Sequence record: DRR723986_3096
DNA: 64,000 nt
Strand: one strand, 5' to 3'
A program made the position numbers and the translations under genes. The notes under the pieces are model-generated. The model was given only the letters and a program-made list of their open reading frames with translations, was not told the origin of the DNA and did not search any database. Every line of letters begins with the position of its first letter. The first letter of the stretch is position 1. Positions 26,815 to 49,851 of the stretch are shown here, piece by piece.

Positions 26815-29800
26815 CTAGCTGGATTTCGAGGCCTGGAACTGCTCTTCACCCGTTGTGAGGTGACGCTGGAGTGCCCGGGCCAAGTGTTCTACGTTGGGCG
26901 ACTGGACCATGCTATGGTGATGCCCCGGCACAAACTCGACGGCCACTTGATCGACCAAGTAGCCCCACCCGCGATCTTCTGAGGGACGAGGCCCATTGAT
27001 CTGCACCGGTGTTTCGCTGGGCCGGAACAACAGGATGTTGCACTCGATCGGCTCCAATTTGAAGATCGTGGATAGTTCGACATGACGGTGAAACAACCCT
27101 TGAAGGTCTTCCAGCGTTTGTGCTACCACCTCGGGAGGAGACTCCTCGGTCAGGACGCCAAGCTTCTTAACGTGCTCGAACAACAGCGGCAATTGCTCTT
27201 TGGCAGAAAGCTCGCCCAACTGTTCCAGCGTCATCTCGATACCGTACTCAAGCCCAACGTTGACGCGTTCATCCTTGGGCACCAACGGTGTCGACTCTTC
27301 CGGGATTGTCGTGTCGAGTAGCAACAGCCGCTCGATCTCGACACCACTGGCCAAGCACTGTCGTGCCATCTCGTAGGCGATCAATCCTCCGAGCGACCAA
27401 CCACCAACAATGTATGGCCCCTCAGGCTGAACGGTTCGAATGGCTTCGATGTATTCCTCCGCCATCGATTCAATTGATGTCGGCAACTCTTCATCGCCGT
27501 GCAGCCCACGCGAGCGAATCCCATATACAGGTTGGTCGTCGCCTAGGCACTTCATCAAGTCTTGATAGCAGATAACGATTCCACCAGGCGGGTGAACCAA
27601 GAAGATTGGCCGCTGGCTCCCACCGGTGCGAAGCGGCGTTATCAGCGACGCAGCCCCATGACGCGCCGCCGAGCTGACTGCGGCAGCGCCGAATCGCTTC
27701 GACATGGTCTCGTCGTGCAACTCGTAGAGGCTGCAGGCCATTGATCGAATCGTCGCTAAGTCGAAGATGAGCGCAGCGGGGACTCGAATTCCAAGTTCTT
27801 CAGATAGCCTTGTCGTCAGCATGGCGGCTTGCAAGGAGGTGCCACCTGCTGCGAAGAAATTCTCGTCGATCGATATCGCATCACAACCGATGACTTCAGC
27901 CCAGCTATCATGCAGGAACTGCTCTGCCGCGTTCTCGGGTGGAAGAACTTGACGACCGACTGTCAGCGAGTCGATAGTGCTGGGTAATTGTTTGCGATCG
28001 ACCTTGCCGCTGGTCAACATGGGCATGGTGTCGACTGGCAAAATGGCGTCCGGTCTCTTGAAAGCTGGCAGTTTCGCGGCAAGTTCGACACGAATCTGTG
28101 CGATGGCCTGTTGTTGATCAGCGTCGGCTGCAAGCTGGACAAACAGGGCAAGCGTGCTGTTGGCTCCTGGCCCCTCGACAACTTTAGCCGCACATCGAAC
28201 GGCCTTGGAACACTCCGCTGCGGCCGACTCAACCTCGCTGAGTTCGATCCGATAGCCGCGCACTTTGACCTGGTGGTCGGATCTTCCTAGGAATTCGATA
28301 GCTCCGGAGGTTAGCTTGCGACCTCGATCGCCAGTCAGATAGACTCGCCGCGTCGGATCGAGCGGATGCGATACAAAACGCTCGGCGGTCAACTCAGGTG
28401 CACCGACGTACCCATTGGCCAGGCCGTTTCCACCGATGGCGATCTCGCCAGGAATGGTATCAGGGACCGGCATTCGGTCTCTGCCGAGTATCAGAACTTC
28501 GCAACCGGCAATCGGAGGGCCAATCGGAATCGTTCGACGAGCGTCATGATCCAACAACTCAATTGCAGTTGCCTCAACTGCAGCTTCGGTAGGGCCGTAA
28601 AAATTCCAGAACTTGCTCGCAGTCTTGGTGGCTTGGATCTGGCTAGGAAGTTCCGTCGGCATACTCTCACCGCCGGTCCACACGTACCTTAGCGACTTGC
28701 ATTGACTGAACTGCGGCTGTTCAACGAGCAGACTAAGAAGGCTCGGCACGGCTGGCAAAACACTAATGCGTTGCTCGCGGATGAATTCTACCAACAGGGC
28801 TGGATCGCGCACTGTCTCGTCATCGGGCCATACCAGCGTGGCCCCTTGGGTGAGAGTCGTCCAGGCGACGCCCAGTGCGGCATCAAACTGGTGCGAGAGC
28901 AACATGAGAACGCGGTCACCCTTTTCAAGTGGTACCGCCTGAGCCCGCCAGTTGAGCGTATTACCAATCGCGGCAAACGGCACTTCGACGCCTTTGGGGC
29001 GTCCTGTTGAACCGGAGGTATAGACTACGTATGCAGCAGCATCGTCCTGAATCTGTTGCATAGCTTCATTGGCAGCAGTTCCAATCTCAGTAGATTCACC
29101 GGAAGCAGATGCTTGATTACTCGAGACGACGGATGCTGCTGATGCGGGCAGCGTGCGGGTATCGATTTGAGCGACAGAGGGCAACGCCCAGTCACTCGTC
29201 GTATCGCAAACGCAGCGTTTTGCTCCCGTGTCGGCGGCTAGGTCTGCCCATGTGACTGATGGCTGTCGAGCATCAATCGGAATCGGGACCGCGCCGACTA
29301 ATTGCACGCCGAGCATCGCAGTGAACGCAGAGCGGCCGCCTTTACAAAACACCGGCAAGCGTTCCCCGGGTTGGACGCCGACCTTTGTTAGCTCACTAGC
29401 CAGTTGCATCGCGGAGTTGACTAAGTCAGCGTACGACGTTTGGTCATCGCCGAGGGTGAATGCTGTAGCGTCAGGTGCATCCACTGCGTGGCCAATGATT
29501 TTCTTCGCAACGTTGAATTCTGGTGTGTCACCATTGAGCACCGGTGCAGTGGCAGCAACGGAAGAAACGATTGCTGGCAACCTAGTGTCTGGACGACTTA
29601 GGCCAGCATCCAAAATCTGCGAAAAAACGCGGGCGAACTGCTGCATTGTGTCTGCGGCGAAGAGGTCTTTGCAGTAGCAGACCATGCCCTTCAGTTCATC
29701 GGCACTGTGTTCAAAAATGAACTCGACGTCGTAGTGGCAGGTTGGGTGCTCGAAGTAAAAACTCTCCTGCCGCATTCCTGCAAACGTCCAAGACTGCTCT

Positions 29801-31005
29801 TCACCAGGGAACAAAAACGAAGCACGACCAGCCTCACTTTTGACCTGAGCCTTCTCAAATGTGCAGGAAACTTGGAAGAGCGGACTTCGGCTGCTATCGC
29901 GAATCACATCGCTCTGGGCGACAATCTGACTGATCGGGTACTCTTCATTCTGAAGGGCGTCGATCAGAGTTCGGCCGCAACGCTGCGCTTGCTCTGCAAA
30001 TGTTGGATTGTTCCGAACATCGAAAAGCAGCGGTAATACATTGACAAAGAAGCCAACCGTCGTCTCAAAATCGCGTTGACTGCGTCCTGTAAATGGACTG
30101 CCGACGAAGAACGCCTCTTGGCCACTGTAGCTGGACAAGGTTGCTGCGATGGCGGCGTGGACGATAGCGACGGGAGTCACCTTTAGCTTGCTGGCTAGTT
30201 CGCTTAGCCTTCGCCCGCTGCCAGCAGAGATTTCCAGGCTCGCCACTGAGGCTCTGCCCGTGAATTTCGCCGGTCGCAGAAAATCCGTCGGCAGCTCAAG
30301 GGCGCTATCTCCCTCGGCGAGCTGGTTCATCCAGTATTGTCGCTGTCTCTGACCCCCCTCAGAGTCGAGCAATGCCGATTGCCGCTGAACGAACTTGCCA
30401 TAGTTGTTCTGCGGATCAGGCAAATGCACCGGTATGCCATCAGCGAGCCTTGGATAGCTTTCACGCAATTCGCCAAGAATCAGGACAAGCGACCAGTAGT
30501 CGACAACAATGTGATGCGCTTGGGCAAAGACAATCCAGTCATCATCAGCAATCCGGTAGACGTTCAAACGCAGAAGTGGACCGCTGCGAAGGTCGAAAGG
30601 AACGGCCGCCTGCCTAGCTAGTGCACTGTGGATTTCGGCATCACTGGCGCCCAGCAAATCTTCGACCTGAAAGCCTGGTGGCAGGTCATCGTGGATCGTT
30701 TGCAGGGGCCGACCGTCTTCGTCAGAGAATGTCGCTCGCAAACTGCTGTGACGTCGCGCGACTTGGTTCAGTGCCTCGCGCAGAACCTTGGGCTGCAATC
30801 TGCTGCGCAGACGTGTTGGCAGAAATACATTGAACGAGGTCGCTTCGGGCGCCCGGCGAAAGTCATGCCAAAGGCCTTGCTGACCATGAGACATGGGGAA
30901 CTGCTTGCTGCGGCGAGACTTTTCTTCCAACAGCTTTGCAAGCAGCGTCCTCTTTTGCTCGGGCGAGAGTTTTGAAACGTCCAAACCGTCTACTCTATCG
31001 CCCAC
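26815..31005 (-). CDS. Single-module NRPS: docking-C-A-PCP-TE
   Basis: C domain HHIVVDYWS; A domain YTSGSTGRPKG, YGPTE, YLTGD and GKVDRK; PCP FFAAGGTSL; TE GWSLGG...GHH. Confidence 0.95.
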   Translation of the reverse strand: MGDRVDGLDVSKLSPEQKRTLLAKLLEEKSRRSKQFPMSHGQQGLWHDFRRAPEATSFNVFLPTRLRSRLQPKVLREALNQVARRHSSLRATFSDEDGRPLQTIHDDLPPGFQVEDLLGASDAEIHSALARQAAVPFDLRSGPLLRLNVYRIADDDWIVFAQAHHIVVDYWSLVLILGELRESYPRLADGIPVHLPDPQNNYGKFVQRQSALLDSEGGQRQRQYWMNQLAEGDSALELPTDFLRPAKFTGRASVASLEISAGSGRRLSELASKLKVTPVAIVHAAIAATLSSYSGQEAFFVGSPFTGRSQRDFETTVGFFVNVLPLLFDVRNNPTFAEQAQRCGRTLIDALQNEEYPISQIVAQSDVIRDSSRSPLFQVSCTFEKAQVKSEAGRASFLFPGEEQSWTFAGMRQESFYFEHPTCHYDVEFIFEHSADELKGMVCYCKDLFAADTMQQFARVFSQILDAGLSRPDTRLPAIVSSVAATAPVLNGDTPEFNVAKKIIGHAVDAPDATAFTLGDDQTSYADLVNSAMQLASELTKVGVQPGERLPVFCKGGRSAFTAMLGVQLVGAVPIPIDARQPSVTWADLAADTGAKRCVCDTTSDWALPSVAQIDTRTLPASAASVVSSNQASASGESTEIGTAANEAMQQIQDDAAAYVVYTSGSTGRPKGVEVPFAAIGNTLNWRAQAVPLEKGDRVLMLLSHQFDAALGVAWTTLTQGATLVWPDDETVRDPALLVEFIREQRISVLPAVPSLLSLLVEQPQFSQCKSLRYVWTGGESMPTELPSQIQATKTASKFWNFYGPTEAAVEATAIELLDHDARRTIPIGPPIAGCEVLILGRDRMPVPDTIPGEIAIGGNGLANGYVGAPELTAERFVSHPLDPTRRVYLTGDRGRKLTSGAIEFLGRSDHQVKVRGYRIELSEVESAAAECSKAVRCAAKVVEGPGANSTLALFVQLAADADQQQAIAQIRVELAAKLPAFKRPDAILPVDTMPMLTSGKVDRKQLPSTIDSLTVGRQVLPPENAAEQFLHDSWAEVIGCDAISIDENFFAAGGTSLQAAMLTTRLSEELGIRVPAALIFDLATIRSMACSLYELHDETMSKRFGAAAVSSAARHGAASLITPLRTGGSQRPIFLVHPPGGIVICYQDLMKCLGDDQPVYGIRSRGLHGDEELPTSIESMAEEYIEAIRTVQPEGPYIVGGWSLGGLIAYEMARQCLASGVEIERLLLLDTTIPEESTPLVPKDERVNVGLEYGIEMTLEQLGELSAKEQLPLLFEHVKKLGVLTEESPPEVVAQTLEDLQGLFHRHVELSTIFKLEPIECNILLFRPSETPVQINGPRPSEDRGWGYLVDQVAVEFVPGHHHSMVQSPNVEHLARALQRHLTTGEEQFQASKSS

Positions 31006-31008
31006 AGA

Positions 31009-34000
31009 CTACTCGCTTTCTCGCAACAACTGTCCAAGCAGCTTGTTTACTTCGTCGTCATTTAACTCTGGCAACTGCGCCAGCAACTGCTCTGCATCAC
31101 CAGCATGCTCGGGCGACGATTCATGCGCCGAACCATCCTGATCCGAATTTGCTTTAATCGAATCATCGGCCGAGGTGACCGCGACTTGGGGAGTGCTACC
31201 GCCAATGAGCTCACTAACGCCTTGAACCAATTCACCGTAGGACTCGCTTCTCATCAGCAAAGCGATCGGCATGCTAATTTCCATGTGACTCTCGATCCAA
31301 TTTCGCATCTCGACCGCCATCAGCGAATCCAAGCCAAGTTCCAGCAGAGCTCGATCGGCCGGAATATCTCCTGGAGCGACGCCTAGCAGGCTGCCCGCTT
31401 TGCTGCGAAGTCCTGTGTCGATCATCTTCAGACGCTCTTCCTCCGATGCACTACGAAGCGAAGCCGCGGTCGCCAGGCCGCCATCTTGTGATTCGCCGGG
31501 AGCGTGAACGAGCAAGTGTTCAAACCGCGGCGACACGCGATTGGTAATGCCCAGCCCACGCCAGGTTGACCAGTCTATGCGGAGTACGCTCATTTGCACA
31601 ACCCGCTGTGACAATGCATAGTCGAGGCAATCGGTGGCCTGCTTAACAGTAAAGCTCAGCACGCCTTGCCGCTGGAGTCGCTGCCCCAGCTCATCACGCT
31701 CGGCAAGATAACCAACCTCGCCCAAGTGGCCCCAGTTCATTACCAATCCAGGCAATCCCTGAGCCCGTCGATAGAACGCCAGGCTATCCAGCAGCGCGTT
31801 TGCTGCAGAGTAGTTGGCTTGGCCCGCGTGCCCAAAGACACTGGAAAGCGAGGAGAACAAAATGAAGCAGTCGAGTTCCCGTCCGAGCGTCTGTTGGTGC
31901 AGGTTCCAACCACCCAGAACTTTTGGATAAAGAACACGATCAAGCGTCTCGCGATCTAGGTCCGGAATGAGCTTGTCTTCCAAGACCATTGCCGTATGGA
32001 TGACACCAGCCAGTGGCGGCAGATCTTCGTCGATGATCTTTAGAACCCGCTGAACTTCGTCAGCGCTTGTAACGTCAGCCGGGATTAGTTCAACTCTAAT
32101 GCCTTGCCCACGTAGTTGCTCGATCACCTCCGCCGCAGCGTCTCGCGGAGTTTTACTTCGACCGGTGAGCACTAGATTCTTCGCGCCGCGCTGACACAAC
32201 CACTTTGTGATTTCCAGTCCGAAACCTCCCAGACCACCGACCACCCAGTAAGTTCCGTCTTCACGCATCTCAGCAGGCGAGTGCTCTCCGGGGAAAACGG
32301 GCTCGGGCCGACCGTCGAATGTGACCGCGATCTTGCCAATGTGTTGCCCACTTTGCATATACTTGAATGCGTCGACGGTCTCCGGTGCAGCAAAAGACTT
32401 GACAGGGATGGGCTTGAGTTCGCCCGAAGCAAACCGCTGCATCAGCTCCCTGAGCATCGTCCCCATCCACTGAGGCTTTCGCTTGAACAGTTGATCAAGG
32501 TCGATAGCGTGTAACGCGAGATTGTTTCGGAACGGGTAAAGCCCCAGCGGTGCATCCGAATAAATATCGCGTTTTCCAATCTCGAGGAAATGACCTCCGG
32601 TGCGAAGTGTTGACAATCCGACCTTGATTGCCTCACCTGGCAGGCTGTTCAGAACGGCGTCCACGCCCTCGCCATCGGTCGCGGCCAGCGTTTCAGGGCC
32701 AAAGTCGAGTGACCGCGAGTTCATAATGTGCTCAACGCCCAAACTGCGAAGATAGCGGCGTTTTTCGTCGTTTCCGGCCGTTGCGAAGACTTCAATCCCC
32801 TTCAGTTTCGCAAGCTGCAGCGCCGCCAGCCCAACTCCCCCACTGGCTGAATGAACCAGCAGACGATCCCCTCGTTCCAAATGAGCGCAGTTCTCCATCG
32901 CGTGCTGAGCTGTCAGGAAAGCGATTGGAATCGCACAAGCTTGTTCGAAGGTGAGGTTCTCTGGCATCTTAGCAACCAGAGCTTCGTCGACAACGACGTG
33001 CGTCGAAAATGCGCCAGGTGCGATGGCGACCACCGGATCGCCCTCGCTGAACCGGCAACCAGAGCCAACACGCGTGACGACGCCAGCACACTCGGCCCCC
33101 AAATCCACCGGGCCATCAGCCATGCCTGGATAAAGGGCCAACGACTTCATTACGTCCGCGAAATTCAATGCGCCGGCGCGAACCTCAATTTCCAACTCGC
33201 CGGATTCCAAGTAGCCTGGATCAAACCCGTGCACTCCGAAGCGACCATCGCGGATCGTGGTGTATCGCATCTCCTCGATACTAGCCGACTTGCCGGGCGT
33301 CAGGCGGCTTGGCAATTCATTCGCAACTGAGGTCGGCAATGCTTTTTCATCCTGCCGTCCAAAACGACGAACGAACCTGCTGCCGTCACGCCACATAATC
33401 TCGTCTTCGCCATCCCAGCATGCCAGCTCGTCAACCAAGCAGTCGAGGTCCGTTGTGGCGGGCTGCGAGGGCAAGTCGATCAGCTTGGTCTCGAGGGCTG
33501 CGTACTCGCTGACGATAACACGCGCCATTCCGATAAGCGGTCCAGCGGCAACCGACACCAGTTCTGGTTCATCTTCCATCGATTGCGCACCGGCGGTCAC
33601 CACGCTCAGGCGGGCTGTGGGCGAGCCAGACAGCTTCTCCCAGGCTTGCACTAGTGAAACGGGTGCGACGGAAGTCAGATGGGTGCTTTCCTGAAGAGCT
33701 GTGCAGTTCAGCAAATGCGGCTGAGGCACATCGTTGCCCCAGAGGTAGACAACGGAATCGATCGTTCCGCCCGCGTCATCAAAGACTGCCCGCAGGGCGT
33801 CCGTAAAACTCTCAACCGATTCCGGATCGGCCTGATAGAAGCGTGACGTGGCCGTCTTGGCTACTTGTGAATCATGTCGGTACACTTCGAATACTTGTCC
33901 GCCCCGGCGAACCAAACGCTCGGTGATCTCGCGTCCCACGCCACCTTCGTCCATGAAGATCAGCCACTTCGGCGACGGTGGCAGAGTGTCTTCGGCTGGG

Positions 34001-37000
34001 GCCGCAGCACTGGCCTGTGAATCAAGTGGGTTCTCGATCCACGAATAGGCATACGCCATGTCCTGGAGCGTTTCCTTGCCCGTCGAATGACCTACTTTCT
34101 GACTAACAAAAGACTCGATCGAAATACAGAGCCTTTCATCGGCGTCATAAATGTTGACGTCGCAGCGCATCTTTCGATCTGTCTTTGAGATCAACTGGCA
34201 GTGGACGATTGCAGCCGCTCCCGGGTTGCCATAGTATCGAAATTCTTCGATCTCGTTGGGTAAGTAGAGGCCACTGTTGGTGTGATCGAAGTCTGGATCC
34301 GCTGCGATCATCGCGTGAAAGCAACTGTCCAATATGGCTGGGTGGACAACATGCTCTGCCGAGCTAGCGTCCAGCTCCGGCAACGAGACTTCAGCAACCG
34401 CCTCGCCGACACGACGCACGCCGTGTTGAATTCCCTTGAACAACGGCCCGTACTTCAGGCCAATCGATTGGCAGTAATCATACAGCCGGTCTTGGTCGAA
34501 CTGCTCATTGCACCGGCTTCTTGCCTCTCGCAAAATTGACGACGATTCCAAGGGGCGTTTGGCAGCCAGCGAACTCAAATCGGCTACAGCCATTGGCTGC
34601 CAGTGCTCGTTGTCACAATCGCGAAATGCAAGTTCCACCATTCGCCGATCTGGAACATACCGCGTTTGTATCCACTTCGAGTTGGCATCGGTCAACGTGC
34701 AAGCTGCTTGAAAGCGAACTCGTTGGACCATGAATGGCTTGGTCGAAGAGGCATCGTCGGAGTCCCCAATTTCTGCGGGCCGACCGTTGTCGCCGGCCAT
34801 GTTGATCTCGCGTCCGGCGGCAACAATCGTGTCCAGCATGGCCGCCGCCGGGTACATAATTGCATCACGGACCGAGTGGTCAGACAGATAGCGTTGCAGA
34901 CCGAGGTCAATCCGAGATTGCCAAACCGGCGCGTCGGTGTCAGCTCGTTCCCCAAGCAGTGGGTGCACCGGTGTAGCCGTCCTGGAAAGGCGGCTTTGTA
35001 GCGATTCGGACCAACAGACCTGCTGTTCGAACGGATAAATCGGCAAATCGATTCTTCGCGTCGGCTTGTTGTAAAAGCCAGACCACTTGATATCAAAACC
35101 CATTGAATAGAGGTCACCCAGCGACTTGGTGATTACCTGCAAATCGTCTTGCTGTCGATTGAGCGATGCGACGGTGCGGACGTTACTCCCAGCCGCCTGA
35201 AAACATTCGTTGATCGAGTAGGCCAGGACTGGGTGCGGCCCAACTTCGACGGCTACACCAATGCCGCGCTGAGCGACGCTAGCCATTGCATCGGAGAATC
35301 GCACGCTGTGGCGAACGTTTTGCCACCAATAGTCTGCCCCAACTTCTTTGCCGCAAATCTCTTTTCCAGTCACCGTCGAGATCAACGGAACCTTGGTTTC
35401 CGATGGCCGAATGCCGCCGAGCGATCGAAGCAACTCCTCTCGGACCGGCTCCATCTGCGGGCTATGGAATGCATACTCAACGGTCAATCGGCGCCAGAAA
35501 ATCCCCGCCTCCTGGAGCCGACTTCCGATTTCATCGATAGCATCTTGCGCCCCGGAGATCGTTACCGAAGTCGGCCCGTTGATGGCCGCAATCGAAACAA
35601 CGTTTTCCAAACCTTGAATCCATTGCGGGACTTCTTCCGCACTCAGGCCAGCGGCTAGCATGCCGCCGTGCGAGCTCGCAAGGTCCATCGTTCGTCCACG
35701 ATGGAACGCAACCAACGCAGCGTCCTCGAAAGACAGTGCACCGGAGAGGTGGGCGGCGGCGATCTCACCGACACTATGCCCAACCAAAACGGCGGGACGC
35801 ACACCCCAGCTTTCCCAAACGGCGGCGAGTGCAACTTGGATCGCAAAAATACTCGGCTGAGCGATGGAGGTTTGATTCATCCTCGATTCCGACTCAGGCC
35901 GTGTGAGCTCCTCCATCAGGGACCACGACGCGTACTTCGAAAGCTCTCGGTCGCAACGCTTGATGGCCGAACGGAAAGCGGGCGAGTACTTGAGAAGCCC
36001 GCGGCCCATGCCCCACCACTGCGGCCCTTGCCCACTGAGCACGAACGCCACGCCAGAGCTGAGCCGTTGAGCACTTACTTCGTCACCAAGTTCACTGTGG
36101 TTGGACGCCGCAATCTCACGCAATTGCTCAATCATCGAAGAGCGATCTGCAGCAGAGGCGGTCGTGCGTTGGCTGTGATGCGAACGTCGATGTGCGATAT
36201 AGCCGGCAATCTCCGCCAGATGCATTCCCGGATCCAACGACTGGAGAGCATCCGCATATTCGCCAGCGAGAGCTGCAAGCGATGTTTTGCTGCGAGCCGA
36301 AAGCGGCAAAAGGACCGGAGCTTCGAAACTCGGCGGTTGGTTGTTTTCTTTACCGCGTGTGGTTGGCTTTGCTGATTCAGCAGAATCTTGTCGCAGAGAG
36401 TCCGATGCAGCCTCCTGTCTTCGACCGGCTGGTGCAGTTGCTTTTCGCGAAGACTGCGGAGCGGACTCAAGGACGATATGTGCATTTGCACCACCGTACC
36501 CAAATCCGTTAATACCAGCCAAACGCGGACTGTCGCTGGACCAATCACATAACTCAGTTGGAAGTTGCAGACGCAGCGCTTCAAAGTCGATTGCAGGATT
36601 GGCAGATTGGAAATGCAAATGCGGCGGAATAGCACTATGGTGCATCGCCAGAGCGACTTTGATCACACTGGCGATTCCGGCTCCCGCCTCAAGGTGGCCG
36701 ATGTTGGTCTTTACCGAGCCAATCCAGCACTTCGAATTCCGGTTACGCTCCGCGCCGAGAACGGAGCCAATCGCATTGGCCTCAATTGGGTCGCCAACGG
36801 GCGTCCCTGTCCCATGCGCTTCGACGTACTGAATGTCACCGGGCTCCACTTGAGCTTTTTCGCAGGCAGCCTTGATCAGTGACTCTTGGGCCGACTGGCT
36901 TGGCACGGTCATGCCTGGTGTTCGACCATCTTGATTGAGTGCCGTCGAGCGGACGACCGAGTAGATCGGATCACCGTCGCGCATCGCAGCAGCCAATGGT

Positions 37001-37785
37001 TTAAGCATCACCATTCCTGCGCCTTCGCTGCGCACATATCCGTTCGCTCGAGAGTCGAAGGTCTTGCAGCGACCGTCGGGCGAAAGCACGCCGAGCTGAC
37101 TGAACGCGACGTAGAAATCCGGCAGAATTAGAGCGTTGACTCCACCAGCTAGTGCCATTTCGGCGTCGCCTCGCCAAATGCTCTCGCAGGCCATGTGCAT
37201 GGCTACCAACGATGATGAACAGGCCGTGTCGACGGCGACACTGGGGCCACGTAGGTCAAAGCAATAGGAGATCCGATTGGCAGCGATACTGCTTGATCCA
37301 CCGGTGTTGCTGTATGCATCGATAACGCCACGGTCCTGGTAGCTCAATCCAGCGACGGCGTAGTCAAAGCTTGAGATCCCGGCGAAAACCGAGACGCTTC
37401 GCCCGGCTAGCCTGCCGACTTGAACCCCAGCGTCTTCTATCGCCCGATACGTACACTCCAACAGCATTCGCTGCTGCGGATCCATGCTGGCTGCCTCGCG
37501 AGGCGAAATCTTGAATAGCTGCGGGTCGAACAAATCGATGCCCTCAACGTACCCGCCCCACTTGCTTTGCGTCTTGCTGACCGTCGTGTCACCAGGGGAA
37601 TAGAACTTATCCAAGTTCCACCGCGCCGGTGGCGTTTCGGTGATGCAGTCTTTTCCGGAGCGAAGGTTGCTCCAGTACGCCTGCCAGTCGTTCGCGGCGC
37701 CGGGGAAACGACAACCAATGCCGATAATCGCAATTGGCTCGTTGGCGGTCGCGGCGTTGATGTTTCGATATTGTTGTTTGCTCAT
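31009..37785 (-). CDS. Type I PKS, single fully reducing module: KS-AT-DH-ER-KR-ACP
   Basis: KS DTACSSS, HGTGT and KTNIGH; AT GHSVG and YAFH; DH HPLLG...DHSVRDAIMYP...DSCFH; ER HSASGGVG; KR GGLGGFG, LED and YSAAN; ACP LGLDSL. Strong RBS CAGGAGG. Confidence 0.95.
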   Translation of the reverse strand: MSKQQYRNINAATANEPIAIIGIGCRFPGAANDWQAYWSNLRSGKDCITETPPARWNLDKFYSPGDTTVSKTQSKWGGYVEGIDLFDPQLFKISPREAASMDPQQRMLLECTYRAIEDAGVQVGRLAGRSVSVFAGISSFDYAVAGLSYQDRGVIDAYSNTGGSSSIAANRISYCFDLRGPSVAVDTACSSSLVAMHMACESIWRGDAEMALAGGVNALILPDFYVAFSQLGVLSPDGRCKTFDSRANGYVRSEGAGMVMLKPLAAAMRDGDPIYSVVRSTALNQDGRTPGMTVPSQSAQESLIKAACEKAQVEPGDIQYVEAHGTGTPVGDPIEANAIGSVLGAERNRNSKCWIGSVKTNIGHLEAGAGIASVIKVALAMHHSAIPPHLHFQSANPAIDFEALRLQLPTELCDWSSDSPRLAGINGFGYGGANAHIVLESAPQSSRKATAPAGRRQEAASDSLRQDSAESAKPTTRGKENNQPPSFEAPVLLPLSARSKTSLAALAGEYADALQSLDPGMHLAEIAGYIAHRRSHHSQRTTASAADRSSMIEQLREIAASNHSELGDEVSAQRLSSGVAFVLSGQGPQWWGMGRGLLKYSPAFRSAIKRCDRELSKYASWSLMEELTRPESESRMNQTSIAQPSIFAIQVALAAVWESWGVRPAVLVGHSVGEIAAAHLSGALSFEDAALVAFHRGRTMDLASSHGGMLAAGLSAEEVPQWIQGLENVVSIAAINGPTSVTISGAQDAIDEIGSRLQEAGIFWRRLTVEYAFHSPQMEPVREELLRSLGGIRPSETKVPLISTVTGKEICGKEVGADYWWQNVRHSVRFSDAMASVAQRGIGVAVEVGPHPVLAYSINECFQAAGSNVRTVASLNRQQDDLQVITKSLGDLYSMGFDIKWSGFYNKPTRRIDLPIYPFEQQVCWSESLQSRLSRTATPVHPLLGERADTDAPVWQSRIDLGLQRYLSDHSVRDAIMYPAAAMLDTIVAAGREINMAGDNGRPAEIGDSDDASSTKPFMVQRVRFQAACTLTDANSKWIQTRYVPDRRMVELAFRDCDNEHWQPMAVADLSSLAAKRPLESSSILREARSRCNEQFDQDRLYDYCQSIGLKYGPLFKGIQHGVRRVGEAVAEVSLPELDASSAEHVVHPAILDSCFHAMIAADPDFDHTNSGLYLPNEIEEFRYYGNPGAAAIVHCQLISKTDRKMRCDVNIYDADERLCISIESFVSQKVGHSTGKETLQDMAYAYSWIENPLDSQASAAAPAEDTLPPSPKWLIFMDEGGVGREITERLVRRGGQVFEVYRHDSQVAKTATSRFYQADPESVESFTDALRAVFDDAGGTIDSVVYLWGNDVPQPHLLNCTALQESTHLTSVAPVSLVQAWEKLSGSPTARLSVVTAGAQSMEDEPELVSVAAGPLIGMARVIVSEYAALETKLIDLPSQPATTDLDCLVDELACWDGEDEIMWRDGSRFVRRFGRQDEKALPTSVANELPSRLTPGKSASIEEMRYTTIRDGRFGVHGFDPGYLESGELEIEVRAGALNFADVMKSLALYPGMADGPVDLGAECAGVVTRVGSGCRFSEGDPVVAIAPGAFSTHVVVDEALVAKMPENLTFEQACAIPIAFLTAQHAMENCAHLERGDRLLVHSASGGVGLAALQLAKLKGIEVFATAGNDEKRRYLRSLGVEHIMNSRSLDFGPETLAATDGEGVDAVLNSLPGEAIKVGLSTLRTGGHFLEIGKRDIYSDAPLGLYPFRNNLALHAIDLDQLFKRKPQWMGTMLRELMQRFASGELKPIPVKSFAAPETVDAFKYMQSGQHIGKIAVTFDGRPEPVFPGEHSPAEMREDGTYWVVGGLGGFGLEITKWLCQRGAKNLVLTGRSKTPRDAAAEVIEQLRGQGIRVELIPADVTSADEVQRVLKIIDEDLPPLAGVIHTAMVLEDKLIPDLDRETLDRVLYPKVLGGWNLHQQTLGRELDCFILFSSLSSVFGHAGQANYSAANALLDSLAFYRRAQGLPGLVMNWGHLGEVGYLAERDELGQRLQRQGVLSFTVKQATDCLDYALSQRVVQMSVLRIDWSTWRGLGITNRVSPRFEHLLVHAPGESQDGGLATAASLRSASEEERLKMIDTGLRSKAGSLLGVAPGDIPADRALLELGLDSLMAVEMRNWIESHMEISMPIALLMRSESYGELVQGVSELIGGSTPQVAVTSADDSIKANSDQDGSAHESSPEHAGDAEQLLAQLPELNDDEVNKLLGQLLRESE

Positions 37786-37841: not shown

Positions 37842-39062
37842 CTAGTTACCAGATCGAAAGGCCTCGCTAGGCAGCATCCTCGACGCTCGAACGGCCGGCA
37901 GGATCGCACCGATCAAGCCAATGCACAGCGAAAGGATGACGCCCTGCAGGATTACCGTTGGGGCGATCGAGGGTGAAAGGATCCCCTTCGCAGCGGGTGC
38001 TTCGCTGAGCAGCCGTACTAGTACGACCGCCACGACACATCCGATGGCGCTGGCGATAATTGCCAAGCCGCATGATTCACACATCACCATGGCAACGATC
38101 CGCTTCTTTGGCCAACCAATTGCACGCAGGATGCCAATCTCACGAGTTCGCTCCATGACACTGGTCAACATGGTATTGAGCGTTCCGATCGAACCGATGA
38201 TCAGGGCAATTGCTGACGTCATCCAGGCCATGGCTCCAGCCATCTGCATCCGTAGATCCGTCTCCACAAATTCGCTGGTAGCGAGCGCCAGGAGCCGAGA
38301 ATCCAGCGCTTGAATTCCCGCGATAGCGTCATCTGCACTGGCCGCACCGCCACCGGCGATAACTGTTTTGTCCAGGATTACGTTGATGTAGGTGACCTGG
38401 CCCTTGCGATCGGTCAGACTCTGCAGCAGTTCAAGCGGCAGAATCATCGATCCGTTTTCCCAAGTGCTCGGGCTCTCAAATACGCCCTCGACGCGATATG
38501 TTTCATCGAAAAGCAGAATTTCTCCTCCCGCTTTTTGCCCAATTCGTTCGGCCAGGTGAATTCCCAGGAAAACGATCTTGTCGGCAGCGCCGCCCGCTCC
38601 CTCTGTTGCGGTCGTTTCGACATCAGCCGCCGGGCTCTCGCTGTCACCTTGACTGCTAGCATTGGGCGCATCAGAGGCGATCACGCGGTCGATGGAATAA
38701 TCTTCGAGCAGCCAGGAATCGAGTGCGATGCCCATCGTGGGCAGCCCGTAAACGCCTTCCTCTTCGAGCGAAAGGGTTTCCAGGAGGACTCCCGCGGCAC
38801 GGTCTACTTCGGCAAGCTGTTCGATTTCGCCAACCATTGCCGCATCCACACTGCTACTCAGGCGATCAGCGGACCCGTCTCGCGACACAACGACGTCGAC
38901 CGAGTGGGCTGCGTAAATATCCGCGAAAGAGCTACTGAAACCATTTGCTACGCCAATCAACGCAACCACGCTGGCGATTGCCGTGGACAGAGCCAATAGG
39001 GTTAGTAGAGTCCGAGCGGGGCGTCGCGTCAGATTCTTGATGACCAGCGAACTGAATCGCAT
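37842..39062 (-). CDS. ABC transporter permease, MacB/FtsX-like
   Basis: KNLTRRPARTLLT N-terminus, a periplasmic loop, and SVMERTREIGILRAIGW. AGGAGG precedes ATG 39062. Confidence 0.88.
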   Translation of the reverse strand: MRFSSLVIKNLTRRPARTLLTLLALSTAIASVVALIGVANGFSSSFADIYAAHSVDVVVSRDGSADRLSSSVDAAMVGEIEQLAEVDRAAGVLLETLSLEEEGVYGLPTMGIALDSWLLEDYSIDRVIASDAPNASSQGDSESPAADVETTATEGAGGAADKIVFLGIHLAERIGQKAGGEILLFDETYRVEGVFESPSTWENGSMILPLELLQSLTDRKGQVTYINVILDKTVIAGGGAASADDAIAGIQALDSRLLALATSEFVETDLRMQMAGAMAWMTSAIALIIGSIGTLNTMLTSVMERTREIGILRAIGWPKKRIVAMVMCESCGLAIIASAIGCVVAVVLVRLLSEAPAAKGILSPSIAPTVILQGVILSLCIGLIGAILPAVRASRMLPSEAFRSGN

Positions 39063-39525
39063 CCCGCCTCCTTCTATGCTCTTAGTCTCACGAATACTGG
39101 CCATCTATGGGCCGGCGCTATAGGTAGCACTTGCAGGGGGCGATTGTACACCAGCAGGAGCGACCTTTTAAAGCTGGTATTAGAACACTCTGCCCGATGA
39201 CAGTTCACCGCACCTCGGTAGTTTTCGGCTTTCCGAATCTCCGACCTGAGCGAGTTTGTTGGACTGCGTGGATTCTAGCGACCGTCAGCGGCATTGAGGC
39301 CCGGGGACTTTTCCTATCGGGCGAACTCAAACGCCTAGGGGGACTAGGTGCCTGCCGGGGACGCTCCCGAGGATAACGCCTCTGCAGTGAACCGGAATTG
39401 TGGCGAATGGGAGTGTGGCACCAAACCGATCCAATATTCAGGAGTTGCCGTTTTCGACGCCTGCGAACACGCAACAAGCGGAATCAAAATGCGGCTCTCC
39501 GGCCAACCCTTGCTGAGAATCAACC

Positions 39526-40608
39526 ATGCGTACTTTGCTGATCGTACTCCTTGCCGCTTCAAGCACCCTGGTTCTGGGTTGTCGGAGCAGGCCGATCAAA
39601 ACGATCATGAACGGCAGCATGAATATGGTTGGCCGCATGGACATGTCCGGCGGCATGGACATGACGGGGCAGTTGGCAACTGCGTTCAGGACAGACAACA
39701 CTGCGTCGCGTCTCAGCGCTGTCCCGGTGTATCGAAATGTTACAAGTGGTGGTAGCGTGGCCGTTCTAGACGTGGACGGCCTGCTGGTAAATAAGAACAT
39801 GGCTGGCATGGGTTCGATGGGAGAAAATCCCGTTGCGCTCTTTCGCGAAAAGCTAGACCAACTTACCCGTGAACCTTCGGTGAAGGCAATTGTGCTGCGC
39901 ATCAACAGCCCCGGAGGAGGCGTTACGGCCTGCGACATCATGCTCCGCGACCTCCTTGCTGTGAAGCAGCAGCGCGGCGTACCGGTCGTCGCTTGTATCA
40001 TGGACGTCGGCGCTGGTGGAGCCTATTACTTGTCGACTGCCGCGGATGCCGTCGTAGCGCATCCCACATCGATTCTTGGCGGACTCGGGGTAATTCTGAA
40101 CGTCTACAACCTGGAACTGACCATGAATCAGGTGAACATCGCCAGCATTCCAGTCAAAGCTGGAGAGCACGTCGATATGGCTTCACCGGAGAGGATGATG
40201 GAACAGGTCGAGCGCGAGCAGCTTCAAGCGATGGCGGACGACCTACACCAACGATTGATCGATCGCATCACCGCCTCTAGGCCATCGATCTCCGCCCATG
40301 CGGACGATATCTTCAGTGGAAAAATCATGACCGGAGAGCGAGCTGCGGAATTGTCCTTGGTCGACGACTTGGGGTATCTCGACGACGCAGTTGGCCTAGC
40401 GCGCGAGCTCGCCGGTCTGCCGGCAGACAGCTCTGTCGTCATGCTTAGGCGAGATAACGACCGAGCGTACACGCTACTGGATGTGACGCCAAACTCGCCT
40501 ACAATGTCGTCCTTGATTCCGCTCAACGTGCCCGGGTTGGATCGTCAATCGTTGCCAACCTTTCTCTATATGTGGCAGCCGGAATCGAAATTGGTTGCAG
40601 GCAATTAA
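39526..40608 (+). CDS. S49/SppA-fold lipoprotein, probably catalytically inactive
   Basis: Lipobox-like LVLGC; VKAIVLRINSPGGGV, PVVA and VDDLGYLDDAV. Catalytic motifs are altered (see findings). Confidence 0.8.
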   Translation: MRTLLIVLLAASSTLVLGCRSRPIKTIMNGSMNMVGRMDMSGGMDMTGQLATAFRTDNTASRLSAVPVYRNVTSGGSVAVLDVDGLLVNKNMAGMGSMGENPVALFREKLDQLTREPSVKAIVLRINSPGGGVTACDIMLRDLLAVKQQRGVPVVACIMDVGAGGAYYLSTAADAVVAHPTSILGGLGVILNVYNLELTMNQVNIASIPVKAGEHVDMASPERMMEQVEREQLQAMADDLHQRLIDRITASRPSISAHADDIFSGKIMTGERAAELSLVDDLGYLDDAVGLARELAGLPADSSVVMLRRDNDRAYTLLDVTPNSPTMSSLIPLNVPGLDRQSLPTFLYMWQPESKLVAGN

Positions 40609-41795
40609 CCATCGCAGGAACACTCAGGTTGAACCCTAACGAACAAACTGAGTTACCGACCGAGGGTGATGCTCCCCGAACAGCGATTGATAACGCGAAG
40701 CAGCCCGACGGCCTTATTGTCCGGGGATTACGAAAGTGCCTCGGGCTCGCCGCGGTGCTTTTGCTGATTCAGTTTCTCTTCACCCTAGTCGCTCGATTCG
40801 GCGATACCATCGAGCTCGCTAGCCACTTCAGCATGCACGCCCTGGTGGCCTCTTGCCCAGTTGTGCTCGGTGCATTGATTCTGCGCAGCCGAGCGTCCCT
40901 CTGGATGGGCCTCACTGTATTGCTTGGGCACCTGATAATCGTACAGCCCTGGAGTTTGTACCTAGCCACACCGACCAGCCTGACGACCAAGTACGAACGC
41001 TCGTTGACGGTTCTTTCATGGAATGTGCTCAGTTCCAACTATCAGTTCGAAGCGGTTGACGAAGTTATTCGTAATGCCGATGCTGACTTGTTGATATTGA
41101 TCGAAGTGCGGCCAGGATTCCTAGACGACCTGAGCGCCATTGAAGAACTCGGTTACCAACGACGGCTTGTGCGACCTAGTTGGCGTGGCGGAGGAATCGC
41201 TGTCTTCGCCCGCGATAGTTCCATCGAGCTTGAGGCCATGGACTTCGGCTACGAGACATACCCGGTGATCGTTGCGAAGATCCCACGCGAATCTGGGCTG
41301 CGCAGCGAAGCGGTCCCGGCCCTAAGCTCTGACGATCTGGAAGCACCAACGGAAAGTGGCTCTAAGCCCAGCGGACCGGAGAGCCCTGCCGAGAATCCCG
41401 CCGAGAGCTTTGCCGAGAACCACGAACAACCCGTCTACTTGATTGCACAGCATACGTTTTCCCCCATGCCGATCTCCCGCACGCCACACCGAGACAATCA
41501 ACTGCTGGCGTCCGTGCAATTCGCTCTTGAGCACTCAAGTGCACCGACACTTCTGGTTGGGGATCTCAACGTAACGCCTTGGGCTCCGGTCTTTGGTGAG
41601 TTGCTTGATGCTGGCTTCGAGGACTCTCGGGTCGGTAAAGGAAATTGCCCAAGCTGGCCTGCTGGAGCCGGACCAGTAGGAATTCCAATTGACCATGTGC
41701 TGCACCGCGGAAAGTGCGCTGTTTCTCAGCGAGTGGTGTTGCCGACTGCCCCCGGTTCAGACCACCGTCCAGTCAGTTTTACGTTGCACTACTGA
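40572..41795 (+). CDS. Endonuclease/exonuclease/phosphatase family protein with N-terminal TM helices
   Basis: LSWNV, LIEV, GDLNVTPW, IDHVL and GSDHRPV. Exact start uncertain. Confidence 0.85.
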   Translation: MAAGIEIGCRQLTIAGTLRLNPNEQTELPTEGDAPRTAIDNAKQPDGLIVRGLRKCLGLAAVLLLIQFLFTLVARFGDTIELASHFSMHALVASCPVVLGALILRSRASLWMGLTVLLGHLIIVQPWSLYLATPTSLTTKYERSLTVLSWNVLSSNYQFEAVDEVIRNADADLLILIEVRPGFLDDLSAIEELGYQRRLVRPSWRGGGIAVFARDSSIELEAMDFGYETYPVIVAKIPRESGLRSEAVPALSSDDLEAPTESGSKPSGPESPAENPAESFAENHEQPVYLIAQHTFSPMPISRTPHRDNQLLASVQFALEHSSAPTLLVGDLNVTPWAPVFGELLDAGFEDSRVGKGNCPSWPAGAGPVGIPIDHVLHRGKCAVSQRVVLPTAPGSDHRPVSFTLHY

Positions 41796-47910: not shown

Positions 47911-49851
47911 ATGTGCATTATGAATCGATTCTGTAGCAAGTTGTTGTGCATTGTAGTCAGTTTGTCACTTGGCCAATTTGCACACTGTCAACATGACCAT
48001 TCGTCGGGGAATGACAAGCCGCAGGTGCCCAAGATCTACTTGGACAAGAGCCCGCGGATTGTCTCCTACCAGCTTGGTCGTTTGAGCAATGAGCAACTGT
48101 TGTTGGTACCAACGGCGACGGATGACCCGAAGTACCGTCCCGTTCTTGAGGCGATCCTCTCTCGAGTTGGAATGTCACAGGCTGACCGAGAAGACGCATT
48201 GGCGGGGCTGGTTACCATCAGCAGCTCAAGTCCCGTTGCCGAGCTCATCGCGGTCATTGAAGGAGTGGATGGTGAGGACGAGAATTCAGAGCTAACAATG
48301 CGGTCGCTGGCTAGCATGCTGCTCGAACAACCTCGTGAGAATTTGCTGGCTGCTAAAAACGAGTTAGTTGGGCTGGCCAAGTCGGCGTCTGGACTGCAGG
48401 CCATTGCCGGTTGCGCTGCCCTCATCACAGCCAACCAAGCAGAACTGGCCCGGTCGGCAGCCACCGAAGGAGCTGGGTTGGAAGTCTACCTGCAGTCGAT
48501 TGCACTGGTCAAAGCACCGGAACAACGCAATGATCTAGCTGGTTCAGTGCTCCGGCTGGCAATTGATTCCAAGGAGCCCAATTCGGTCCGCCGCGCTGCC
48601 ATCACTTCGTTAGCTTCGACAACAGCCGATCAAACTCGAGTGTTTTCAGAACTAGCAGATATCCTGATCGAATCGAAGGAGCTCCGCCCCGCGGCCATTG
48701 GAACGCTGCTCTCAATCCCGCCAAGCAAGCGCGACTCAGAGCACTCAGAAAAACTGACTGGGTGGTTGGTCGACTTCGCCGAATCAACGCCTGCTGCAAA
48801 GCGGACGGAGGACTTCTTCGTCGACGCGATGCAGCTCGTTGATCAACTGCTCGCTGCATCACCCGGTGCCAAAGCTAGGGCCTACCGCGGGCGACTGCGT
48901 GAGACCGTCGTTCGTGTCATTCGCATTCACACCGTCGAAGAAGAAATGCGGTACGACATTCCATACTTTGCGGTGGAGGCAGGAAGACCTGTTCAAATCG
49001 TTTTGGTCAATGAAGACCTGATGCCTCACAATTTGGTTATCACCAAGCCCGGCACACTGCAGGCGGTTGCCGAAGCAGGGTTTGAAGCTGGCACCAAGGG
49101 AGGCTTAGACGGAAAGCAATACGTTCCGGTTTCCGATGACGTCTTGCACGCCACGACGATGATTCCCGCTCGCGAAACCGAGCGACTGACTTTCACGACC
49201 CCCGATGCCCCCGGCGAATACCCTTACGTTTGTACTTTCCCTCGGCACTGGATGCGGATGTACGGCGTGATGATCGTGGTCGACAACTTAGACGAGTGGA
49301 ACGCCAATCCAACCAAACCCACTGACCCAGTTGGCAGCAACCGGAATTTTGTACAAAAATGGACGGTTGCCGACTTAGCGGGCGACTTGGATCAAGGCAT
49401 CGTCGGACGCACGCCCTCGATCGGTAAGAAGCTCTTTGAGGAGGCGAGCTGCGCTGGCTGCCACTACGCGGGCGAACTGCGTGTTGGGAACGTTGGCCCT
49501 GAACTGGACACGCTTTACCAGCGCAGGAAGAGCGATCGCCGAGCCATCTTGCGTGAGATTCTGGAACCATCACATCGAATTGATGACGCTTATGCCGTCC
49601 AGTTGTTTCTTACACTCGACGGCGACACAGTTAGCGGCCTTGTGGTAGAGGAATCGAAAGATACGATCTCTATTCTCGAAAACCCTGAAGCCAAGGAGCC
49701 GACCATCCTGGCGACAGAGGACATCGAACAGCGAGTTCGTACGGCTAATTCAATGATGCCCAAGGGGCTTCTCGATCGCTTCAGCAAAGATGAAATCATG
49801 GAGCTGATGGCGTTTATCGAATCGATTCAGAAATCGCAACCCGCGCCCTGA
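47911..49851 (+). CDS. HEAT-like, azurin/plastocyanin (type-1 Cu) and cytochrome c domain protein
   Basis: Type-1 copper ligands MPHN...CTFPRHWMRM; CAGCH followed by VGPELD and SMMP. Confidence 0.85.
   Translation: MCIMNRFCSKLLCIVVSLSLGQFAHCQHDHSSGNDKPQVPKIYLDKSPRIVSYQLGRLSNEQLLLVPTATDDPKYRPVLEAILSRVGMSQADREDALAGLVTISSSSPVAELIAVIEGVDGEDENSELTMRSLASMLLEQPRENLLAAKNELVGLAKSASGLQAIAGCAALITANQAELARSAATEGAGLEVYLQSIALVKAPEQRNDLAGSVLRLAIDSKEPNSVRRAAITSLASTTADQTRVFSELADILIESKELRPAAIGTLLSIPPSKRDSEHSEKLTGWLVDFAESTPAAKRTEDFFVDAMQLVDQLLAASPGAKARAYRGRLRETVVRVIRIHTVEEEMRYDIPYFAVEAGRPVQIVLVNEDLMPHNLVITKPGTLQAVAEAGFEAGTKGGLDGKQYVPVSDDVLHATTMIPARETERLTFTTPDAPGEYPYVCTFPRHWMRMYGVMIVVDNLDEWNANPTKPTDPVGSNRNFVQKWTVADLAGDLDQGIVGRTPSIGKKLFEEASCAGCHYAGELRVGNVGPELDTLYQRRKSDRRAILREILEPSHRIDDAYAVQLFLTLDGDTVSGLVVEESKDTISILENPEAKEPTILATEDIEQRVRTANSMMPKGLLDRFSKDEIMELMAFIESIQKSQPAP

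Follow-up and report, generated by a model that had tools for sequence, protein, structure and literature searches.

The stretch of DNA analyzed here, 64,000 nucleotides of the sequence record DRR723986_3096 (the window), encodes at positions 39526 to 40608 of the plus strand a homolog of the signal peptide peptidase SppA (peptidase family S49) in which the nucleophile serine, the general-base lysine and a second conserved serine of the active site have been replaced. This protein (360 residues in an uninterrupted open reading frame, ORF, from ATG to TAA) is very probably a non-proteolytic pseudo-enzyme, because the catalytic dyad and the second Ser are replaced clade-wide, the clade is under purifying selection and has gained no conserved Ser or Lys. 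An undisrupted ORF and a pseudo-enzyme had been proposed in an earlier reading of the letters of this DNA (hereafter the sequence-only reading), and both claims are well supported by the comparative data described below, which place the substitutions in a monophyletic group. With regard to its role it is tentatively proposed, with a probability of roughly 0.4, that the protein is a non-catalytic lipoprotein that would hold an amphiphilic product of polyketide synthases (PKS) and non-ribosomal peptide synthetases (NRPS) for an ATP-binding cassette (ABC) permease.

The protein matched the Pfam family Peptidase_S49 (PF01343; 3.2e-31, 108.8 bits with a cut-off of 24.9, residues 148-298). Against the NCBIfam equivalog domain TIGR00706 (SppA_dom) it scored 151.2 bits, below the cut-off of 155.45, and it remained far under the cut-offs of the full-length NCBIfam equivalogs TIGR00705, NF008195 and NF008745 (SohB). 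A HMMER search of SppA chains in the PDB retrieved the Bacillus subtilis structures 4kwb (3.2e-35) and 3rst (5e-35) as well as Escherichia coli 3bez, to whose Ser-bearing C-terminal domain the protein aligned (1.2e-29). The AlphaFold2 model (predicted local distance difference test, pLDDT, 86.2; predicted template modeling score 0.81) was matched by Foldseek to chain 4kwb_B (E 2.5e-21, template modeling (TM) score 0.87 on the target, root-mean-square deviation (rmsd) 2.2 Å over 231 columns, 31% identity), followed by E. coli SppA (1e-15), the NfeD protease 1510-N, ClpP and crotonases. As judged from these profile matches and the predicted structure, the protein is a single-domain S49/SppA homolog with a ClpP/crotonase-like alpha/beta fold. 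A prophage head-maturation protease was considered and rejected: the match to phrog_53 (1.8e-30) indicates family kinship only, since the window has no phage context and the protein carries a lipoprotein signal. A search for longer or fused forms returned a single 661-residue protein, which contains S49 domains only.

Alignment with 4kwb, 3rst and 3bez places G164 (in the motif GAGGAYY, starting at residue 162) on the Ser of AASGGYY and G186 (LGGLGV, starting at residue 184) on the Ser of TGS(L/I)G, a residue which we take to orient the Lys in active enzymes. V216 (KAGEHVD, starting at residue 211) falls on the fifth residue after the Lys of KSG, the position of K199 in B. subtilis SppA. Both B. 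subtilis chains read KSGAHAD, with Ala at this place, which fits both chains being constructs that carry K199A, the standard active-site mutation of this enzyme, which leaves it proteolytically inactive (PMC7568657). The three catalytic substitutions pointed out in the sequence-only reading are therefore real by alignment to the enzymes of both species, and so is its statement that the remaining fold motifs are intact, as SPGGG, D174, G185/G188, D217, R252 and D280 are common to the protein and its active relatives. The frameworks SPGGG, GxGG-YY, G-x-G-V and KxG-x-x-x-D of B. subtilis SppA (the 36K type; 3RST, 4KWB) are conserved, whereas its nucleophile Ser, its Lys (K199) and the Ser of TGS correspond to G164, V216 and G186.

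The wild-type states of the three columns were set from 162 S49 domain rows, obtained in a search of the whole library of representatives, plus the protein itself. Single-domain SppA reads S-S-K (62 rows), S-S-A is found in the C-terminal domains of two-domain SppA (19 rows), whose N-terminal domains read x-x-K, and 32 further rows share the pattern G-G-[I/V] with the protein. The dyad of the E. coli enzyme (protease IV, the 67K type; 3BEZ, 3BF0) is thus split, with S-S-A in the C-terminal domain and the Lys in the N-terminal one, whereas the protein described here has one domain with neither residue. Among the protein and its 120 best homologs (n = 121, the close homologs), column 164 holds Gly in 119 and Ala in 2, column 186 Gly in 120 and Ala in 1, and column 216 Ile in 89, Val in 31 and Thr in 1; the G-G-[I/V] pattern of the clade is more than chance. 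A column comparison of 81 rows of the clade with 44 active rows, all of which have the TGS-column Ser, revealed no Ser or Lys gained in the inactive clade, so that the alternative Ser/Lys dyad which could have refuted the sequence-only reading was sought and did not appear in these columns. The residues specific to the clade are D84, F106, R107, N192, Y194 and H241, together with a set in the C-terminal tail.

The phylogeny suggests a common origin of these changes. In a FastTree phylogeny of 119 full-length domain rows, calculated with the three catalytic columns left out, all 31 rows lacking the Lys formed one clade (support 99) that lies among the active S-S-K proteins with a single domain, and an IQ-TREE analysis of 72 rows, from which every second S-S-K row and two of three two-domain rows had been removed, recovered the same single branch (SH-aLRT 96). 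The Lys and the second Ser are absent from 31/31 of these rows and a Ser is still present at the nucleophile column in 4/31, which fits an order of events in which the base was lost first and the nucleophile drifted later. On this evidence the Lys and the second Ser were lost once, in one ancient event, in a large planctomycete-wide clade that includes Pirellulales, Planctomycetales-labelled and Isosphaerales records and of which the analysis covered at least the 120 best clusters (90% identity) and 31 full-length representative rows (50% identity). In comparison with the 85% identical ortholog of the closest locus (L001), nonsynonymous divergence (dN) was 0.118 and synonymous sites were saturated (proportion of synonymous differences 0.72); omega was roughly 0.03-0.08 in linker, core and tail alike, its exact values being unreliable because of that saturation. 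The clade is thus, judging from these substitution patterns, under strong purifying selection and does not represent a decaying pseudogene: an intact ORF, clade-wide substitutions, a single clade and a low dN were all found, as would be expected of a pseudo-enzyme. Members of the clade are named "S49 family peptidase," "signal peptide peptidase SppA" or "protease IV" in public databases, and the peptidase names are almost certainly wrong for the whole inactive clade. Full-text literature searches turned up neither an account of an inactive S49/SppA clade nor one of this planctomycete protein. Non-peptidase homologs form a category of their own in MEROPS, and ClpR, of the same clan, is a pseudo-protease; iRhom, CspC and SERA5 are described as conserved pseudo-proteases with new non-catalytic roles. 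In ClpR, the iRhoms, CspC/CspA and SERA5 the protease fold has been kept, the catalytic residues have been lost and a non-catalytic role has been selected, as is suggested here, although all of them belong to families other than S49.

The domain layout of the protein (Table 1) resembles that of B. subtilis SppA in the fold, in an N-terminal membrane tether and in a C-terminal tail that extends past the core. The tether itself differs, as B. subtilis SppA has a transmembrane helix and the protein described here a lipobox Cys followed by a Met-rich linker. Bacterial lipoproteins are recognized by a signal peptide that ends in an invariant Cys, and by this pattern the protein is predicted to be one of them; Cys19 is present in 112/121 close homologs, the other 9 being gapped. 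As the nearest active SppA relatives share the lipobox, lipid anchoring is older than the loss of catalysis. In the linker (median 41 residues, range 23-53 in the close homologs) Met amounts to 22.5% of the residues, compared with 3.1% in the rest of the protein, with 0.5% His and 0.7% Cys, and at least two MxM motifs occur in 106/112 close homologs; its low model confidence (pLDDT 51-65) suggests that it is probably flexible. The lipobox Cys and the Met-rich periodic segment behind it, both noted in the sequence-only reading, are real. They do not set the inactive clade apart, since the lipobox is older and the periodic linker of distant clade members contains almost no Met, which makes Met richness a trait of the Pirellulales subclade.

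The N-terminal motif that follows the linker is nearly invariant (of 121: D57 in 119, N58 in 118, A60, S61 and L63 in 120 each), and a predicted strand at residues 64-69 packs on the core in the model (pLDDT 93 for the block 61-70). Variability is particularly low in the former active-site loops and in the C-terminal tail, with a mean entropy of 0.30 bits for SPGGG, 0.42 for the former TGS loop, 0.74 for the former nucleophile helix and 0.82 for the tail, compared with 1.21 for the core. In the tail, F346, Y348 and W350 are common to active relatives, and D312, P322, P325, G337, D339, R340 and Q351 are specific to the clade. The C-terminus of B. subtilis SppA sits in the active site until it is self-cleaved (PMC7568657), whereas the tail of the inactive protein cannot be self-cleaved. 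Also in contrast to B. subtilis, no sppI/yteJ-like partner gene was seen adjoining the S49 gene.

Table 1. Coordinates, within the window, of the inactive S49/SppA homolog, its parts and its neighboring genes.
Feature	Positions	Strand	Description
Inactive S49/SppA homolog gene	39526..40608	+	360 residues plus stop; ATG start, TAA stop
Lipoprotein signal peptide (predicted)	39526..39582	+	MRTLLIVLLAASSTLVLGC, ending LVLGC; Cys19 codon TGT 39580-39582
Met/Gly/Asp-rich periodic linker	39583..39687	+	residues 20-54; MxMxG[D/E/K]-like hexads
N-terminal motif	39688..39732	+	residues 55-69; [RK][TS]DNxASRL..VPVY
S49/ClpP-fold core domain	39733..40425	+	residues 70-300; pLDDT mostly 95-98, Foldseek match
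Gly164, replacing the nucleophile Ser	40015..40017	+	codon GGT; HMMER alignment, column counts
Gly186, replacing the Ser of TGS(I/L)G	40081..40083	+	codon GGA; HMMER alignment, column counts
Val216, replacing the general-base Lys	40171..40173	+	codon GTC; alignment, column counts
Conserved C-terminal tail	40426..40605	+	residues 301-360; VVMLRRDNDRAYT...PGLDR..LPTFLYMWQPE
Divergent intergenic region, 421 bp	39105..39525		separates the S49 gene from the permease-PKS-NRPS operon; presumed common control region
FtsX/MacB-type (type VII ABC) permease gene	37842..39104	-	first gene of the PKS-NRPS operon; Pfam
Type I PKS gene	31009..37785	-	KS-AT-DH-ER-KR-ACP, 2258 residues
NRPS module gene	26815..31005	-	C-A-PCP-TE, 1396 residues
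Membrane-anchored endonuclease/exonuclease/phosphatase-family (EEP) gene	40629..41795	+	PF03372, 4.1e-24

The S49 gene is divergent from a tight minus-strand operon that encodes a permease, a PKS and an NRPS, with gaps of 56 nt between the permease and PKS genes and of 3 nt between the PKS and NRPS genes. The permease contains the domains FtsX (PF02687, 2.7e-18) and MacB_PCD (PF12704, 2.8e-10) and scored below all NCBIfam cut-offs, including a weak LolC/E-like match (TIGR02212, 9.7e-9) that is far under its cut-off. A promoter scan gave a single promoter-like match at 39172-39143 on the minus strand, inside the range of shuffled controls, a terminator scan did not rise above shuffled controls, and no Rfam/RNA element was detected between 37700 and 42000.

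The conservation of this arrangement was examined in 40 orthologous loci, all with Planctomycetota titles, in which ORFs were called and their products clustered; 21 of these loci had at least 9 kb on both sides (full-flank loci), and all counts refer to the fetched flanks. An S49 ORF was called in 33/40 loci and in 0/33 did it encode the Lys or the TGS Ser, the one of L027 being truncated at the nucleophile column. A secreted protein of about 300 residues (c1), usually encoded directly adjacent to the S49 gene, was its most frequent neighbor, found in 17/40 loci and 11/21 full-flank loci. An FtsX/MacB permease was present in 14/40 (8/21 full-flank), an ABC ATPase in 11/40, adjoining the permease in only 5 loci, and a PKS or NRPS in 14/40 (8/21 full-flank). 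At least one of c1, FtsX and PKS/NRPS occurred in 27/40 loci (15/21 full-flank), and no HlyD (MacA-type adaptor) or OEP family was found among the recurrent neighbors of the 40 loci. The link with PKS-NRPS genes put forward in the sequence-only reading is therefore real, although it is facultative and the architectures vary. Partners more regular than PKS/NRPS, namely the FtsX/MacB-type permease and the secreted protein c1, were missing from that reading.

Pirellulaceae loci encode a fully reducing PKS together with C-A-PCP-TE, and one Lacipirellulaceae locus combines KS-AT-DH-ACP and C-A-PCP with a KASIII-like gene. In Isosphaeraceae the megasynthase is a PfaD-like ER-KS-AT-KR protein, and in L014 it is an A..C-A-MT-PCP-TE NRPS. 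As the megasynthase types differ between families, the PKS/NRPS link is probably functional and not merely inherited gene order. In addition, L003 and L004 have a phosphopantetheinyl transferase (PPTase) gene that adjoins the S49 gene, and in L019 and L024 a gene related to short-chain dehydrogenases/reductases (SDR) or thioester reductases lies downstream of the S49 gene. An active tandem S49 paralog, suspected in the latter two loci and from long ORFs in L030 and L037, was rejected, the apparent second S49 being the downstream NAD-dependent epimerase/SDR gene.

The protein c1 is planctomycete-specific and was found in L003, L004, L006, L012-L015, L017 (L017:8532-9548, minus strand), L019, L023, L025, L028, L034 and L036-L039. 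Its invariant residues include E297, E304, P305, W308, F309, G311, S317 and R331-R332, and it had no Pfam or NCBIfam match. Nearly all leading Foldseek matches of its AlphaFold2 model (pLDDT 82.9) were START/helix-grip proteins (StAR, CERT, STARD3, PCTP and carotenoid-binding protein; best E 1.5e-5), and an Atlas search gave a weak SRPBCC/START lead (0.80-0.81). On the basis of this predicted fold, that c1 is a START-like lipid binder is a lead only. A second family, c6 (about 330 residues, with a twin-arginine-like N-terminus), is encoded between the PKS/NRPS genes and the inactive SppA gene in L003, L004, L006, L022, L024 and L037 (e.g., L004:3491-4477, plus strand); it had no Pfam or NCBIfam match and the Atlas search was uninformative.

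Altogether, these observations lead to the proposed role. As an ABC permease, a secreted START-like protein and PKS/NRPS of lipid type recur as neighbors, a function in holding cargo is suggested; and since conservation is highest in the former active-site loops and the C-terminal tail, the old substrate groove has most likely been kept as a binding site. From homology, conservation and synteny we infer that the inactive SppA binds and does not cut, as well as the nature of its cargo and its partnership with the permease. The protein would lie on the outer (periplasmic) face of the cytoplasmic membrane, lipid-anchored through its flexible Met-rich linker, and its former substrate groove would hold, without cutting it, an amphiphilic acyl-peptide or lipid. 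The MacB/FtsX-type ABC permease would extract such a product from the membrane and the inactive SppA would act as its receiver or holder; in the window, the product so served would be that of the divergent permease-PKS-NRPS operon. SppA enzymes form rings, an octamer in B. subtilis and a tetramer of two-domain chains in E. coli. Two neighboring monomers contribute residues to each of their active sites (PMC7568657). By analogy with the SppA octamer the inactive protein is probably a ring too, with the former active sites between adjacent monomers; a two-copy complex prediction of residues 62-360 scored 0.00 and 0.01 with a mark of 0.42 and speaks neither for nor against self-association. The scaffold, export-scaffold and self-protection roles suggested in the sequence-only reading are likewise conjectural.

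Exporters of comparable composition are found elsewhere. The Lol pathway consists of the extractor LolCDE, the carrier LolA and the lipoprotein receptor LolB. The likeness to it is purely conceptual, an FtsX-family extractor, a soluble carrier of hydrophobic cargo and a lipid-anchored receiver being common to both schemes, whereas the inactive SppA is not homologous to LolB, nor c1 to LolA, and the permease is weakly LolC/E-like. In Pseudomonas, each lipopeptide cluster encodes its own MacB-like exporter, which takes up its substrate from the periplasm and needs a periplasmic oligomeric partner (PMC8788793). MacAB-TolC-type lipopeptide exporters such as PleABC (PMC8788793) and the DevBCA/HgdBC glycolipid exporters (PMC5985334, PMC6161253) have in common with the planctomycete loci a type VII ABC permease that has a MacB periplasmic core domain and is encoded with NRPS/PKS genes. 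They differ in that no MacA/HlyD adaptor or outer-membrane factor was seen alongside the planctomycete permeases, where the recurrent periplasmic proteins are the inactive SppA lipoprotein and the START-like protein, the putative partners of the permease. A complete trafficking route for PKS/NRPS lipids or lipopeptides, from a MacB/FtsX extractor through a secreted START-like carrier to a ring-shaped inactive SppA receptor, can be drawn from these elements, and its existence in this form must be considered doubtful.

Several observations weigh against the proposed role. No ABC ATPase adjoins the permease in the window, where the one ATPase match (17406-18095) belongs to an ABC-2 system, and the family c1 is absent from the window, as is c6. 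In six full-flank loci (L008, L009, L029, L031, L032 and L035) no associated gene was found and the neighbors are unrelated; no PKS/NRPS is present in the fetched flanks of 26/40 loci, several of them short contigs, and PKS/NRPS enrichment was judged in relation to nothing more than a rough general expectation. The assignment of c1 as START-like is a predicted fold, with a TM score on the target of just 0.45-0.51 and a high rmsd, and c1 had no match to PDB sequence profiles. By analogy with B. subtilis, the conserved C-terminal tail may stay permanently in the old groove, leaving no room for cargo. The former base loop (residues 208-221) is only of average conservation (1.13 bits). Finally, a Ser occupies the nucleophile column in the representatives P0130, P0139, P0155, P0174 and P0211 and in the members encoded in loci L019, L023, L024 and L037, so that sharing of the substitutions among orthologous loci, a point raised in the sequence-only reading, holds for the Lys and the TGS Ser and is incomplete for the nucleophile, which four of them keep.

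Among other explanations, a general housekeeping function in the envelope, for example that of a receptor or holdase of signal peptides, lipoproteins or membrane lipids, which is unrelated to the PKS-NRPS and for which the neighborhoods would be only loosely meaningful, is consistent with the spread of the clade over Pirellulales, Planctomycetales-labelled and Isosphaerales records, with the loci devoid of PKS/NRPS or of any associated gene, with the nature of its closest active relatives, which are ordinary lipoprotein-type SppAs, and with the weak LolC/E-like match of the permease. This function is nevertheless unlikely, as 27/40 loci contain at least one of the associated genes, distant families show the PKS/NRPS association with enzymes of differing types and a PPTase gene adjoins the S49 gene in two loci. 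Self-protection of the producer, in which the lipoprotein would sequester a membrane-active lipopeptide beside the ABC transporter in the manner of LanI/LanFEG and take no part in the export step, agrees with a layout of lipoprotein plus ABC permease adjoining biosynthetic genes; moreover, active B. subtilis SppA gives resistance to lantibiotics and cationic peptides (PMC7568657), and LanI plus LanFEG is the standard immunity pair of lantibiotic producers (PMC4828448). It appears quite improbable in view of the fact that the inactive SppA has no homology to LanI, the antimicrobial nature of the product is a supposition, the gene is kept in loci without PKS/NRPS and in six full-flank loci without any associated gene, and the presence of a START-like carrier in 17/40 loci fits trafficking better than sequestration.

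Three further possibilities concern the protein itself. ClpR co-assembles with ClpP, and the inactive SppA might similarly be a regulatory subunit or inhibitor of an active SppA paralog: the ring-fold motifs are kept and, with active sites that span two monomers (PMC7568657, as above), mixed rings would be a simple way of regulation. A phmmer search of 480 ORFs (the 40 loci plus a segment of the window) found no second, active S49 domain, and the recurrent neighbors are transport and lipid genes, not proteases, which leaves this a slim prospect. MxM/MxxM motifs are Cu(I) ligands in proteins of the Ctr1, CusF and PcoC type, and the Met content and MxM motifs of the linker would agree with a Cu(I)/Ag(I)-binding protein in which the linker is functional and the S49 domain a carrier. 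Such a function is very unlikely considering how little His and Cys the linker contains, that the periodic linker of distant clade members is almost Met-free and that genes of copper homeostasis are not among the recurrent neighbors in the 40 loci; the cupredoxin/cytochrome c gene of the window lies 7 kb away and is not syntenic. That the protein is still a hydrolase using other residues, for instance S128 with K211, S61 or H241, is scarcely credible: these residues are conserved (K211 in 113/121, S61 in 120/121, H241 in 94% of the 81 clade rows, and S128), yet active SppAs and the inactive K199A mutant of B. subtilis have S128 and K211 as well, there is no clade-specific gain of Ser or Lys, and the replacements are Gly and aliphatic residues, not conservative alternatives. 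Non-catalytic holding of a PKS/NRPS product for the permease is the reading retained here, at the probability given above.

Regarding the remaining neighborhood, the EEP gene behind the S49 gene is probably co-transcribed with it. In its longest version the ORF begins with GTG 40572, overlapping the end of the S49 gene, and its likely start is TTG 40629, 20 nt past the S49 stop. The EEP protein has hydrophobic N-terminal segments and is conserved only in L001 (63% identity); some enzymes of this fold are lipid phosphodiesterases, which would fit a lipid theme. PADLOC gave no anti-phage defense match for the S49, EEP or DUF2314 proteins. Genes of the window are of planctomycete character (DUF1559, DUF1501, PSD1/PSCyt, DUF7133). 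An adenylyl-sulfate (APS) kinase gene (26136-26804, plus strand) is convergent with the NRPS gene and ends 10 nt from its 3' end, which may be a hint of sulfation chemistry or a coincidence. A gene fusing cupredoxin and cytochrome c (47911-49851, plus strand), the one mentioned above, and a multiheme cytochrome-like gene (8067-10352, plus strand) are not syntenic with the S49 gene in other loci.

Some of the orthologous loci present peculiarities of their own. In L001 (5965-9829) the permease and S49 genes are separated by 3.8 kb with four small ORFs, compared with 421 bp in the window, suggestive of an insertion in the former or a deletion in the latter. In L030 (6227-8401) and L037 (9971-12079) an S49-like N-terminal part and an NAD-dependent epimerase/SDR domain are combined in a single long ORF; these fusions are probably frame errors in metagenome-assembled genomes, the two being separate adjacent genes in L019 and L024. 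An over-long S49 ORF was also called in L039 (10408-12093). The orthologs of L002 and L004, titled Candidatus Kuenenia stuttgartiensis, are 61% identical to the protein of the window, and the structure of these loci is nearly that of L003, labelled Planctomycetia, suggesting that these bins are probably mislabelled.

Pseudo-proteases are already known, and the inactive clade would add a bacterial case from the ClpP/SppA clan whose gene context is conserved and non-random, and with it a natural experiment on the capabilities of an SppA chamber devoid of catalysis. The protein may serve as a handle on the transport of lipidic natural products through the unusual envelope of planctomycetes and on what their widespread PKS/NRPS clusters make and need. 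If the extractor-carrier-receptor route does exist, it would be a previously unrecognized one in these organisms and a functional analog of LolCDE-LolA-LolB built from unrelated parts.

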